From a virus (taxonomy: Duplodnaviria > Caudoviricetes): 26,279 nucleotides of DNA. Positions 21,877 to 26,001 of this stretch are shown here, piece after piece. Position 1 is the stretch's first letter; each line of letters begins with the position of its first letter. The notes under the pieces were generated by a model. The model worked only from the letters and a program-made list of their open reading frames with translations, did no database searches and had not been told where the DNA came from. The DNA is taken from positions 1 through 26,279 of IMG/VR virus record IMGVR_UViG_3300024240_000011. One strand, 5' to 3'. The position numbers were made by a program, and so were the translations under genes.

Positions 21877-23175
21877 TTATAAATGCCTTTCTTTAAATGG
21901 TATGAAATCCTGAGAAATTGGCACTTCAATTTTCTTATTGTTTCTATTTGTTTTCCATTCTTCTTCATATTCGTCAATATGATTAATAACGTATAGCCAC
22001 CCTTCTTCTTCAGTTGGATTATTATTTATTCTATAATATTCACCAAATTTTTCCTGGCAAATTTCATAATTTATTTTGTAATTCTTTTCTTTAATAATTT
22101 TATTTATTGCTTCTTTTACTTCTTTATATAATTTAACTGATTTATCATATGACGCTTTTCTTTTTTCAAAAGAATCCTGAAAAATCTCCTGAGGTGGATT
22201 AATTTTCTTTATTTCTTTTGAAAATGCAGGCTGGTGTTCTGGGAGTTCTGGGTGCTTTTGAACTGGATGAACCACTGCCTTACCTTCTTCTTTTTTTGTT
22301 TCTTCTTTTATTTTTCCCTTCAAAAAAGATTCCTGAGGTGGGAAAGAATGCAAAACCTCTTCTTTTATAGGTGCAGGCTGGTGTTCTATTTGTTGTGTTT
22401 GTTCTTCAAATTTAAGAACTGGAGCCTTACCCTCGGGTGTATTATTTGTTTCTTCTTTTTCTTTTCCTTTTGAAAAAGATTCCTGAGATGATTGGGGATT
22501 TTCTACTTTTTCATTTCCAGATTCATTTAAAGAATTTGAAAGCGGACCACTCTCTGCTGTATTCTCTTGGGTATTTTTTTGAGAATTATATGAAGTATTA
22601 TATGTAGTATTATATGTATTAGATTTCTGATTTTTGCCTTCCCATTTCTGATTTTCAGAAGTGCATTTCTGATTTTTGCCTTCCCATTTCTGATTTTTAA
22701 CATTCATTTCTGATTTTAATAGTTCCATTTCTGATTTTTCACTATTGCATTTCTTAAAATCAGAAATGCACTTCTGAAAATCGGAAATGAATAAATTAGT
22801 TATCCTATAATGAATAACTGGATGTCCATAAGCCTGGCTTTTCATTCTTTCAATAAATCCTAATTTTTCTAATTTAACTGCTACCAATTCAGTTTGATTT
22901 TTTGTTAAATGAATTTCAGATTCCCATTCAGAATAGCTTTTATAAATCCACCCGAAATATTTTCCTTTGTCAATCCAATACATCAATTGAGAAAAGAATA
23001 TAGATGCATTTATTAATGGAGTTATTTTTTTAGATTGAAAAAATGAAATTAAAATTTGAGGAATCACCAAGCATTTTGAATCGCCAGTGGAGTTTTTGAT
23101 TAATTCTTGCCATTCTTCTTTTGAAATTATTGCAGGATTTTCTCGAGCGGAAATTACTTCTTTGAGTGATTTCAT
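21877..23175 (-). CDS. Phage replication initiator (lambda O-like architecture, N-terminal winged HTH)
   Basis: ASIFFSQLMYW..GWIYKSYSEWESEIHLT..KLEKLGFIE..HYRI wHTH, followed by DNA iterons inside the gene. Confidence 0.85.
   Translation of the reverse strand: MKSLKEVISARENPAIISKEEWQELIKNSTGDSKCLVIPQILISFFQSKKITPLINASIFFSQLMYWIDKGKYFGWIYKSYSEWESEIHLTKNQTELVAVKLEKLGFIERMKSQAYGHPVIHYRITNLFISDFQKCISDFKKCNSEKSEMELLKSEMNVKNQKWEGKNQKCTSENQKWEGKNQKSNTYNTTYNTSYNSQKNTQENTAESGPLSNSLNESGNEKVENPQSSQESFSKGKEKEETNNTPEGKAPVLKFEEQTQQIEHQPAPIKEEVLHSFPPQESFLKGKIKEETKKEEGKAVVHPVQKHPELPEHQPAFSKEIKKINPPQEIFQDSFEKRKASYDKSVKLYKEVKEAINKIIKEKNYKINYEICQEKFGEYYRINNNPTEEEGWLYVINHIDEYEEEWKTNRNNKKIEVPISQDFIPFKERHL
22590..22789. 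repeat. Iteron array plus AT-rich tract: probable replication origin inside rep
   Basis: CATTTCTGATTTT-type units at 22622, 22643, 22664, 22685, 22705, 22726, 22748 and 22769 (spacing 20-22 bp), the last two with dyad symmetry. Adjacent GTATTATAT repeats at about 22595-22620. Confidence 0.85.
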
Positions 23176-23218
23176 ACTTGTCCTTTGTTATACAAAAGAC
23201 GAAACCTGATTTTTTCAT
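23030..23218 (-). CDS. Putative leader ORF (62 aa) overlapping the rep start out of frame
   Basis: Its initiation region AAAGGACAAGTATGAAA is identical to that of rep, 43 nt downstream. Confidence 0.45.
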   Translation of the reverse strand: MKKSGFVFCITKDKYEITQRSNFRSRKSCNNFKRRMARINQKLHWRFKMLGDSSNFNFIFSI

Positions 23219-23285
23219 ACTTGTCCTTTTTTAATGCTGGTAGCCAGGACAGGGTATGAAGCCTTTTTAACTACCAGCATTTTTT
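23170..23285 (-). promoter_or_regulatory. Structured RNA leader of rep (duplicated RBS, anti-RBS loop, RBS-sequestering hairpin)
   Basis: 17-bp direct repeat at 23170-23186 and 23213-23229. Perfect 11-bp stem 23233-23243 / 23271-23281. Loop 23246-23260 is complementary to the repeat. Hairpin GUCUUUUGU-AUA-ACAAAGGAC at 23180-23200. Confidence 0.7.
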
Positions 23286-23629
23286 AAATAAATATATTAA
23301 CTTGGGATTAATATAATATAAATAGTATTGAAGAACATTTTATTTGAAAATTATTTTTGCCTTATTAAATCCTCTTATATAAATAGTCTCGAGATTCCTG
23401 TAAATTGAAAAAATTGTTGTCGATTTATTGTTTTTTTAACAATCTTTTTTATACTAAATCTTATTAATAATATACAAAATATCTTTAAAAGATTCATAAA
23501 AAATTGTTATCATTTTATTGTTTTTTCATACCTACTATTTATAAGGTATAATTTATAAATAATCTCTATAATAATTTACAAATATTTCTACAAATTGTAA
23601 AGCATTTTTAAAAATATTTTTGCAGGGAT

Positions 23630-24589
23630 TTATAAATTAATTAGCCAATTGCAAACTGAAAATAATTGTTCTTCACCATTTAAATTACAAGCGTTGTCTA
23701 ATAAATTGTTCTCGAGTTGATTCCATATTTCCGATGCCATACTTATTGCGATTGCCGCACCAATAAAAAATGTTTTAGGATTTAAATTTTCTTCTCTAAA
23801 AGAAGTTTTAATTCTTGCTAATGCAGAAAATGCAGTTTTCCAATGTTCATCTGCGCCTGCAGGGTCAATTCCACCTTTTAATTCACCTAAAGCAATGTAT
23901 TTATTCCCTTCGATTGATTTCTTTTTTCCTTTTCCATTAATCCTATAGTCACCATTTATTAAAATTAAATCAATATTTTTAGTAACGATTTTAAGAGTTG
24001 AATTAAATAAAAGAGTTCTGTTGTTTTCACCGTTTTTCCAATAAAATCCTTTTGTATGCGATTCAATATTTCTATCTTCTTCTTTTTTCTTTGCCCATAT
24101 ATATTTTTCTGAATCGAGCCAATAAAATTCAACATCATTTATATTCAAAGTTGCTACAAGTGCTCTCATAAATTTTACTTCTGCTAAATACCCCACAACA
24201 TTACGCATCTGTCCTCCAAGAGAATCTCCTTTTACTAACAAATAACGAAAAATTAGTTCATCAACAAAATATTCTCCAGCAGGTTCAAGAAATTTTTCAA
24301 TTAAATTATTTATTGCATTAACTTTGTCTTCATCTTTTAAATGTCCAATAGCTTTATCAGATAAGCCAGAAGCAGTTAACAAAGAATGATAAATCTCTTC
24401 CATTTTTAATAATTCAATGGGAGATTTTAACTTTGAAATTTTTGATTTAAGTGCTTTAGCTTCCAGAACCATCGGTGTAGCCCTCTTATTTTTTTCTAAT
24501 GCTTGCGCAACAAAACCAGCCCTTACCGATTCGTAAGTTGTTTCTAAATCTTTTGAAGAAGTGAGGTGACTTTTGTAAGTGTAATTCAT
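23630..24589 (-). CDS. Type II restriction endonuclease, BsoBI/AvaI family (predicted CYCGRG)
   Basis: RAGFVAQALEKN, RYLLVKGDSLGGQMRN, KNID and the catalytic region ALGELKGGIDPAGADEHWKTA recognised as the BsoBI/AvaI signature. Confidence 0.92.
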   Translation of the reverse strand: MNYTYKSHLTSSKDLETTYESVRAGFVAQALEKNKRATPMVLEAKALKSKISKLKSPIELLKMEEIYHSLLTASGLSDKAIGHLKDEDKVNAINNLIEKFLEPAGEYFVDELIFRYLLVKGDSLGGQMRNVVGYLAEVKFMRALVATLNINDVEFYWLDSEKYIWAKKKEEDRNIESHTKGFYWKNGENNRTLLFNSTLKIVTKNIDLILINGDYRINGKGKKKSIEGNKYIALGELKGGIDPAGADEHWKTAFSALARIKTSFREENLNPKTFFIGAAIAISMASEIWNQLENNLLDNACNLNGEEQLFSVCNWLINL

Positions 24590-26001
24590 TATATTTTACT
24601 CCATTTATAAATGCATTTTCTTAATTCGTTCCTTCCGTGTTTTCCCATTTGTTGACTGCTATTTCCTTTTCCCTTTTCTAATATGTAAATATTGTCAACA
24701 TTAAATCCGACTGTTTCTGCAAATTCACTTAATATTAAATCAACTGGAATAATTTCGCCTGCATACTGAACATTATCATTTACATAATAGACAGTACCAC
24801 CTCTTCTCAAAGTTCTATGCATTTCGTAAATCAAAAAAGCGTGTTCATAAAAATAATGTCGAATCATTTTAATAATTCCATTATTATTTAATTTTTTTTC
24901 TTTCTTATATTCTTCTAATATCTCAAGAACTTCATTTAAGGCATTATTTTCAGTTCCCAATCTGTCCAGCATATTAAAAACATTTTCACCATATTGGGAA
25001 GTATAAAATTCTTTTAAATAAATTTTTCTACCATTTGATTCCACTGTGCTGGAAAGTAATGTTTGTCTTAAATTTCTAATTTCAATTTCATCTATTCCCA
25101 AATACACAAGTTCTAAAGCATATATTCTTGAATAATCATACCTGTTTACATATGGAGGTGAAGTTATTACCAAATCAAAAAAATTATTCTCGAGGCTGGG
25201 CAATATATTAAAAACATTACCAGAAATTAATTCGGTGTTTATATTTTCATTCTGGAAATCAATTCTTGAAGTTTCCTGTATGATATCATTTCTGATTATA
25301 TTTAATTTTTCATTTAACGCATCTTTAAAAGTTGGAATATGGCCTTTATTAAAATCGCTACTTCCTTTTTTTGCTCGGGCATCCCATCTTAAACATTGAC
25401 CATCTTTTCTTGTGTAACTTATTTTTTCCAAAATAGAAAAACAGGCAAAATTTATAATTTGTTTAACATTTAAATCAATATTCAGATTGCTAAAATAATA
25501 TAAATATTTATTCAAGGCATTTTCATTATTCCTTGAGAATGCTTTTTCCGTAATCTTTATATGTTTATAATTTGTTTCTGGGTTTGTTTCTAAATTATTA
25601 TAATCAAGGTTAACAATATTTTCAATTGCATCATTTAATATTGTGATATTTTCCAGATTTTCAAAAGCCAATCTTGTTTTAATTATAAATTCTCCAATTG
25701 GCAATAATTCAATTCCAACACTATTTATATTGTTTTCTTTTGATGTAAACAATGTTGTTCCAGACCCTGCGAATGGGTCGAGAATATTATTTATATTATT
25801 CCTGCCAAATTCATCTATTAAATACTGAACTAATTTAGATGCAAAGCCTTCTTTATATGGAAACCAGTTATATATAGGTGCTTTTTTATTATCTTGATTG
25901 CTTATAAGTTGTCTATTTAAATCAAAATTAGTTGTAATTATACTTTCATATTTATTTTCTAATTCGTCTCGAGATGTATTATGATTAATATTATTGGGCA
26001 T
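24589..26001 (-). CDS. Cognate N4-cytosine DNA methyltransferase (M.AvaI/M.BsoBI-like)
   Basis: WFPYKEGF, motif I ILDPFAGSGTT, motif IV ITSPPY and C-terminal KGNSSQQMG. TAATG stop/start overlap with the REase. Confidence 0.92.
   Translation of the reverse strand: MPNNINHNTSRDELENKYESIITTNFDLNRQLISNQDNKKAPIYNWFPYKEGFASKLVQYLIDEFGRNNINNILDPFAGSGTTLFTSKENNINSVGIELLPIGEFIIKTRLAFENLENITILNDAIENIVNLDYNNLETNPETNYKHIKITEKAFSRNNENALNKYLYYFSNLNIDLNVKQIINFACFSILEKISYTRKDGQCLRWDARAKKGSSDFNKGHIPTFKDALNEKLNIIRNDIIQETSRIDFQNENINTELISGNVFNILPSLENNFFDLVITSPPYVNRYDYSRIYALELVYLGIDEIEIRNLRQTLLSSTVESNGRKIYLKEFYTSQYGENVFNMLDRLGTENNALNEVLEILEEYKKEKKLNNNGIIKMIRHYFYEHAFLIYEMHRTLRRGGTVYYVNDNVQYAGEIIPVDLILSEFAETVGFNVDNIYILEKGKGNSSQQMGKHGRNELRKCIYKWSKI

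Follow-up and report, generated by a model that had tools for sequence, protein, structure and literature searches.

Comparison of five distinct elements indicates that the leader of the replication operon in a prophage of Ignavibacteria carries a conserved sense-strand structure, in which two exposed boxes match, element by element, two copies of the translation initiation site that follows. This loop-target pairing is very probably real and regulatory. With moderate confidence, the hairpin, which lies where the lytic operon begins, is proposed to be a repressor RNA that is processed and acts in trans, and by which the prophage would be silenced; its processing, its action in trans and the direction of its effect are the parts of this proposal that we infer.

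The window, that is the whole stretch of 26,279 nt analysed, is a prophage of Ignavibacteria with a GC content of 28.5% and holds most of an HK97-type prophage, whose portal, terminase, capsid, protease and tape-measure genes all lie on the minus strand. A 32.4-kb provirus record is identical to the window across the tested 6.3 kb and brings an integrase at its far end, while a contig of an Ignavibacteriae bacterium MAG shows 99% identity to it; the three were counted as one element. The replication initiator gene rep opens a co-oriented run which includes the head, tail, terminase and portal genes and has the packaging genes at its end. Iteron-like direct repeats with 21-nt spacing and a 34-nt inverted repeat are found inside rep (window 22622-22789), the repeat number differing among strains (418- and 432-aa variants). 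Upstream of the leader, a BsoBI-like restriction endonuclease and an N4/N6 methylase are encoded (window 23630-26001). The features of the leader, in window coordinates, are:

21877..23175, minus strand: rep, lambda O-like replication initiator (phrog_9773, E 2.2e-18)
23030..23218, minus strand: 62-codon leader ORF opened by target copy 1, out of frame with rep and overlapping it by 146 nt, not conserved
23170..23186, minus strand: target copy 2 (exact 17-nt repeat), RBS and AUG of rep
23180..23200, minus strand: predicted 9-bp hairpin burying the RBS of copy 2, from folding
23199..23206, minus strand: box Y, GGUUUCGU, able to pair with the AUG region of copy 2
23213..23229, minus strand: target copy 1 (exact 17-nt repeat), RBS and AUG of the non-conserved leader ORF
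23233..23243, minus strand: 3' arm of stem P1, from folding and the five-member alignment
23246..23251, minus strand: anti-RBS box, UGUCCU
23254..23260, minus strand: anti-AUG box, UUCAUAC, in the apical loop of P2
23262..23264, minus strand: 5' strand of P2, AGG, with 100% of cells paired and one-sided changes only
23271..23281, minus strand: 5' arm of P1, an 11-bp stem
23322..23327, minus strand: candidate -10 hexamer, TACTAT, inside the conserved TACTATTTAT block
23345..23350, minus strand: candidate -35 hexamer, TTTTCA, with 8/12 consensus matches

The 11-bp stem, the 27-nt loop (23270-23244, minus strand), its 7 + 6 bp complementarity to the initiation site, the 17-nt repeat, the 9-bp hairpin and the plus-strand T-run which an earlier sequence-only reading of this DNA had described were all found where it had placed them. 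The 141-nt region containing the hairpin folds at z = -3.96. Absent from that description was P2, an inner stem of 3-4 bp within the large loop, whose 5' strand is AGGU or GGGU in the relatives and whose partner, CCU or ACCU, follows directly after the anti-AUG box. The anti-AUG box has a predicted opening cost of 0-0.9 kcal/mol in all five elements, and the anti-RBS box, placed on the 3' side of the internal loop, varies in sequence among them. In every element the hairpin is a single stem of 49-53 nt with the internal loop and the inner stem. No Rfam family overlapping the motif was found in the window at E<=1 or in the five members at E<=10; the microRNA matches returned by Rfam were rejected as artefacts of the iteron inverted repeat in rep.

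The leader was found in five distinct elements, namely the window, two related prophages and two non-virion elements. A search with Rep in 401 genomes of the host class gave 3 matches, and a contig of one genome (G259 C56), whose Rep is 34% identical, was found to carry the leader as well with a different sequence; a covariance model made from the window alone recovers it at 31.6 bits. The model made from two sequences found the motif in 3 of the 116 genomes searched in the host order, so that it is rare, and added two copies in a second genome, G299 (66.6 and 44.7 bits). The four-sequence model, built without it, added a second contig of G259, C35, at 76.2 bits (E 2e-10). Both G299 elements are complete prophages akin to the window in head, tail, terminase, portal and integrase genes, and both G259 elements consist of an integrase and cargo, with no virion gene similar to those of the window. 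The leader has the same position in all five, before the first gene of the replication operon. Two elements have an O-like initiator there and one has a 430-aa protein; the remaining two have a short ORF (86 or 49 codons), its stop overlapping the start of a 399-aa protein related to the 430-aa one. The downstream proteins are of two unrelated types, and since the genes after the leader differ between elements, the leader moves independently of the replication gene.

Some properties of these proteins and elements were recorded in passing. The nearest Atlas cluster of the 430-aa protein is named PolA-palm-like (score 0.97), which is a lead only; proteins of this kind (399-430 aa) stand in the place of rep in three elements (L225:1619-2911, L226:1883-3082 and L353:160-1359) and are possibly an unstudied replication protein family. 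The two that were scanned gave no Pfam match and no informative PHROG match, and for the 399-aa protein a profile search gave no meaningful PDB match and the AlphaFold model was too poor to use (pLDDT 44.7). The cargo of the G259 C56 element (L019:4162-16543 and L020:1882-10846) is defence-like, with GmrSD, an OLD-like TOPRIM, REase-ARP and a dynamin-like pair, and also includes an apparent type I restriction-modification locus recognised by reading rather than by domain scan.

Wider searches returned no further member. Those based on Rep gave mainly distant relatives without the motif, and a search of 1.8 billion proteins gave no close Rep relative, the single match at E<=1e-30 being Rep itself. 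Model R2 matched 0 of 98 rep-type loci (97 of 160 fetched loci and L018), and model R3 matched 0 of 12 loci of the PolA-like proteins (of 14 fetched). With R3, samples of 150 class and 150 phylum genomes yielded only the window's own phage and 40 family genomes yielded no new member; as these genome scans scored just 23-88 candidates per genome, they mean 'not found' and not absence. Five further genomes had distant tail-protein matches, and the regions scanned from four of them (all but G098) contained no motif. Several candidates were discarded. A loose DNA pattern matched 169 of the 401 genomes by chance, and the architecture was present in none of 11 viral loci returned by a loose pattern; a further 119 viral loci found with a loose pattern, 100 of which were scored with R2 (best E 0.21), were all filtered by motif and are chance matches as well. 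Three weak R3 matches in L350-L352 (31-40 bits) miss the boxes and look like unrelated intergenic hairpins.

Two observations beside distant Rep relatives are of a different kind. In L180 and L184, a different stem-loop lies 150 nt upstream of the rep homologue, with a loop complementary to a stretch of 12 nt or longer just before the RBS, and is possibly a second RNA control with similar logic. In L018 a CRISPR-like repeat array (L018:40-600) ends about 300 nt before the gene of a distant Rep homologue.

The structure and the match between its loop and the RBS and AUG of the replication gene, which the sequence-only reading had proposed to check by conservation and covariation in homologues, are kept in 5/5 elements, and 9 of the 11 P1 pairs change on both sides. 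In the five-member alignment 96.2% of 104 cells are paired against 38-46% in slid controls, and none of 500 shuffles reached this pairing or the covariation score, counts that are not to be taken as probabilities because the alignment was fitted to the model and holds five sequences, some of them related. P2 and the box Y:AUG helix show no two-sided change. On the sense strand, G.U pairs outnumber A.C mismatches by 11 to 1 in the modelled columns.

Pairing with the targets was specific to each element. When the five loops were compared with the five targets, the cognate pair was best in 5/5 rows, for copy 1 and copy 2 alike. Over the five elements, the anti-AUG box can form 6-9 bp with the AUG region in 9/10 target copies, and 5-7 bp are possible between the anti-RBS box and its cognate GGA box in 10/10; the window loop gives 7 bp across the AUG and 6 bp across the RBS of each copy. 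Shuffled window loops equalled the real loop on copy 2 in 2 of 5000 trials (1-10 of 5000 among the elements). An architecture descriptor, written with the members known, was applied to the 1123 candidate ATGs in 344 kb and selected four, each of them a known member; the ORF of the fifth member is below the descriptor's length cut and passes on a direct test. The two elements residing in G299, and likewise the two in G259, differ in their anti-RBS box, as expected of immunity determinants. As bare duplexes, on the other hand, the cognate targets are surpassed by other sense-strand sites in 4/5 elements, copy 2 being best only in G259 C56, and no pairing site within 250 nt upstream appears among the five best sites per element. 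Consequently, specificity must come from geometry or proximity, and proximity favours pairing within the same transcript.

The two target copies are identical at 20 of 21 nt around the exact 17-nt repeat. The earlier proposal that the 62-aa leader peptide is a functional part is not borne out by the relatives, in which copy 1 opens ORFs of 6, 3 or 2 codons or, in G299 C8, has no AUG; the three short leaders end 24-41 nt before AUG2, and the exact sequence of the 62-codon ORF gave no match in the protein collection. Between the copies lies box Y, which resembles the AGGU-UUCAU segment of the loop and is also able to pair with the 3' strand of P2. Its helix with AUG2 has six pairs, 29 of 30 cells being paired in the five-member alignment with zero two-sided changes. 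The 9-bp hairpin said to hide the RBS of rep is present in the window, but its exact form is specific to the window and the conserved feature is the pairing of box Y with AUG2. The predicted cost of opening RBS2 ranges from 1.2 to 10.4 kcal/mol among the elements and is higher in 4/5 when copy 1 is blocked. With a 30S footprint on copy 1 it becomes clearly lower in only 2/5 and is higher in the window, where, by this folding model, only translation that reads through the leader could melt the 9-bp hairpin.

A single sense transcript is predicted to start near 23315, which in the window is about 35 nt ahead of the stem. The candidate -35 hexamer, which with 8/12 consensus matches is not among the promoter-like sites that a scan of 22900-23700 listed, recurs with its spacing of 17 nt in both G299 prophages and a similar site exists in G259 C35, while the TACTATTTAT block is found in 4/5 members, the fifth having a one-base variant farther upstream. 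Upstream of this predicted promoter lies a 46-nt imperfect direct repeat (window 23408-23543), one copy of which contains a third GUAUGAA (23531); this opens an ORF of 4 codons and fits the anti-AUG box and not the anti-RBS box. A GGA-type RBS motif precedes 13 of 19 window genes and 106 of 516 background ATGs, and because of this enrichment the GGA box that the loop would mask is probably a used RBS.

From these features the following sequence of events is proposed. A promoter just upstream would give one sense transcript on which, in a naive cell, ribosomes at copy 1 would cover or traverse box Y and loosen the Y:AUG hairpin, so that the replication gene would be translated. The hairpin of about 50 nt would be excised and accumulate, and would then bind copy 2 directly and also copy 1, which would leave Y free to close on AUG2. 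With its first gene untranslated, replication would be off and, by polarity, probably the downstream virion genes too, and the variable anti-RBS box would set the immunity type of each element. A block of initiation is suggested by the pairing because both RBS and AUG are covered. Release of the hairpin and action in trans are suggested because a block in cis would lack an input and be sterically strained at copy 1, and because the boxes of co-resident elements differ. A larger claim, which is possible and advanced only tentatively, is that of an independently evolved, protein-free lysogeny switch in tailed Ignavibacteria phages and satellites, in which the 50-nt hairpin would be both immunity repressor and immunity-type determinant, a decoy start and a mimic box would hold a new transcript in the ON state until excised hairpin has accumulated, and the whole would be a portable module placed before unrelated replication genes.

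Somewhat doubtful, yet the strongest of the alternatives, is a pseudoknot acting in cis only, in which the loop would pair within its own transcript and choose between copy 1, box Y and copy 2. The targets are indeed near, 6-10 nt (copy 1) and 49-58 nt (copy 2) from the stem, and such proximity would offset the non-unique energies of the bare duplexes. Pairing of the loop with the Y region is possible in 5/5 elements, with 4-9 contiguous bp and -4.4 to -10.7 kcal/mol, and matching changes are seen (CCUG/CAGG in two members, CCUA/UAGG in two), although the cognate combination is best in only 2/5 rows and tied in one. In a variant of this explanation, translation could be activated as it is in IncI plasmids, the CCU of the loop pairing with the AGG that begins Y and so detaching Y from the AUG; what the loop covers, however, is the RBS and the AUG, a sign of inhibition. 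Moreover, a second helix of 13-15 bp formed through a closed loop of 27-30 nt, with a 6-nt linker over an 11-bp stem, would be sterically hard, and the resulting block would be constitutive, with no evident input signal.

Regulation of the hairpin by a counter-transcribed antisense RNA, as by Inc RNA or CopA on plasmids, is improbable. It had been suggested from the plus-strand T-run after the stem in the window (23280-23285), 2 of whose 6 bases belong to the stem, and it has precedent in IncI1 and R1 (in the available part of PMC8053102); the antisense strand also folds comparably in 4/5 elements and as well or better in 2/5. The antisense U-tract, however, exists in the window only and is missing in the other 4/5, the scan of 22900-23700 gave no promoter-like site on the plus strand upstream of the stem, and the G.U pairs favour the sense strand. 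That part of the earlier reading is accordingly not supported. No intrinsic terminator-like site was found in 22900-23700, and after the stem the sense strand has four U's in one member and none in four, hence no terminator U-tract.

The earlier remark that no protein repressor is visible holds for the CI type, since no HTH_3/S24 match was obtained in the five elements among the ORFs scanned, those of at least 45 aa lying within the locus borders, whereas such a repressor is present in a motif-free control prophage from the same host order, a more distant one. It does not hold without qualification, as the three prophages have in common a divergent, basic gene of 101-105 aa (33-36% identity) at the rep-proximal edge, facing away from the lytic operon (L004:1781-2098, L346:13302-13607 and L348:11950-12255). 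Its product has a predicted helix-helix-helix-wing fold with weak winged-helix matches (best E 0.18) and a HARE-HTH lead, and may be a regulator or an excisionase; by this prediction it could be a protein repressor. A Trans_reg_C match was found in one G259 element. Slightly more improbable than an antisense RNA is an explanation in which the three boxes, one inverted and two direct, are DNA operators for Rep or for this shared winged-helix protein: the candidate in three prophages and the co-variation of the three copies within each element would suit it, but the covarying 11-bp stem and the inner stem would be left unexplained, the internal spacer of the inverted copy differs, the boxes coincide exactly with RBS and AUG, and the downstream proteins are unrelated between elements. 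A chance arrangement or a recent local duplication without function, which the AT-rich region and the rarity of the element (3/116 genomes) might suggest, is very improbable given the compensatory changes in five elements and the lack of any stray match among 1123 ATGs.

The preferred reading, a trans-acting repressor RNA, is best placed next to the immunity RNAs of phages P1 and P4, so that the comparison with C4 and CI made in the earlier reading was an apt one. According to the available sections of PMC5320573, loops a' and b' of C4 confer specificity and RBS occlusion. As in C4 of P1/P7, two unpaired boxes, one of them variable, pair with an RBS-containing target, which is seen here in 5/5 elements; C4 is cut from a larger transcript and serves immunity and lysogeny (PMC5320573 and PMC8198154, available parts), processing here being a proposal. 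C4 has, however, three stem-loops in about 77 nt and an RNase P cut, whereas the present hairpin, of about 50 nt, consists of a single stem that encloses an inner one and is not matched by the C4 covariance model; unlike in C4, the AUG is covered by one of the boxes and it is the anti-RBS box that varies. C4 controls icd/ant (antirepressor) under the C1 protein repressor, and the hairpin faces the replication gene directly.

With P4 CI RNA it shares the same strand and the leader of a replication operon in 5/5 elements, although the promoter is here only predicted. In the available part of PMC4825925, CI RNA is processed from a transcript under its own control and blocks the element's own replication operon in the lysogen, an effect that is proposed here. 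CI acts by termination and has one pairing site upstream, seqA, and another downstream, seqC, whereas both targets of the hairpin are downstream; unlike CI, it has duplicated RBS and AUG targets with box Y between them, no Rfam match and an Ignavibacteria host. The best reading is thus that the hairpin works like P1 C4 and P4 CI RNA and is a member of neither family, because of the lack of a model match, the other fold, the position of both targets downstream and the other regulated gene.

Plasmid and prophage systems offer further likenesses. In IncI1/IncB repY-repZ and R1 tap/CopA, a stem-loop before rep, an RBS-hiding hairpin and a second upstream start are likewise present (PMC8053102, available part), but there pseudoknots activate translation, a counter-transcript blocks them and the leader peptide must be translated, whereas in these elements the match of the loop is to the RBS and AUG themselves, there is no conserved leader peptide, and a terminator for a counter-transcript is seen in 1/5. 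IsrK of the Salmonella Gifsy-1 prophage is also a short RNA from the 5' end of an operon that acts in trans on its own long transcript with coupled translation (PMC4825925, available part); it activates translation and is made by termination, whereas the present boxes cover the initiation site and the hairpin is not followed by a terminator U-tract.

A literature search, outside of which lay most subscription journals and motif-discovery supplements, returned no earlier description of an RNA motif of Ignavibacteria prophages or of a matching immunity RNA. Most of what is known of RNA-based phage immunity concerns the C4 and CI RNAs of proteobacterial phages. The leader is best filed as a variant of RNA-based immunity and as a real regulatory RNA module, uncatalogued until now, that belongs to prophages and satellites of Ignavibacteria. 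The RNA differs in structure, its hosts form a distant group that is mostly uncultured, and it is aimed at the point where the replication operon begins, in prophages where no CI gene is recognisable. Its five natural loop/target pairs form a ready set for tests of cognate versus non-cognate repression and are possibly a compact family of orthogonal translational repressors. If the proposal is true, it would explain both the dormancy of these prophages and how two of them share one host.
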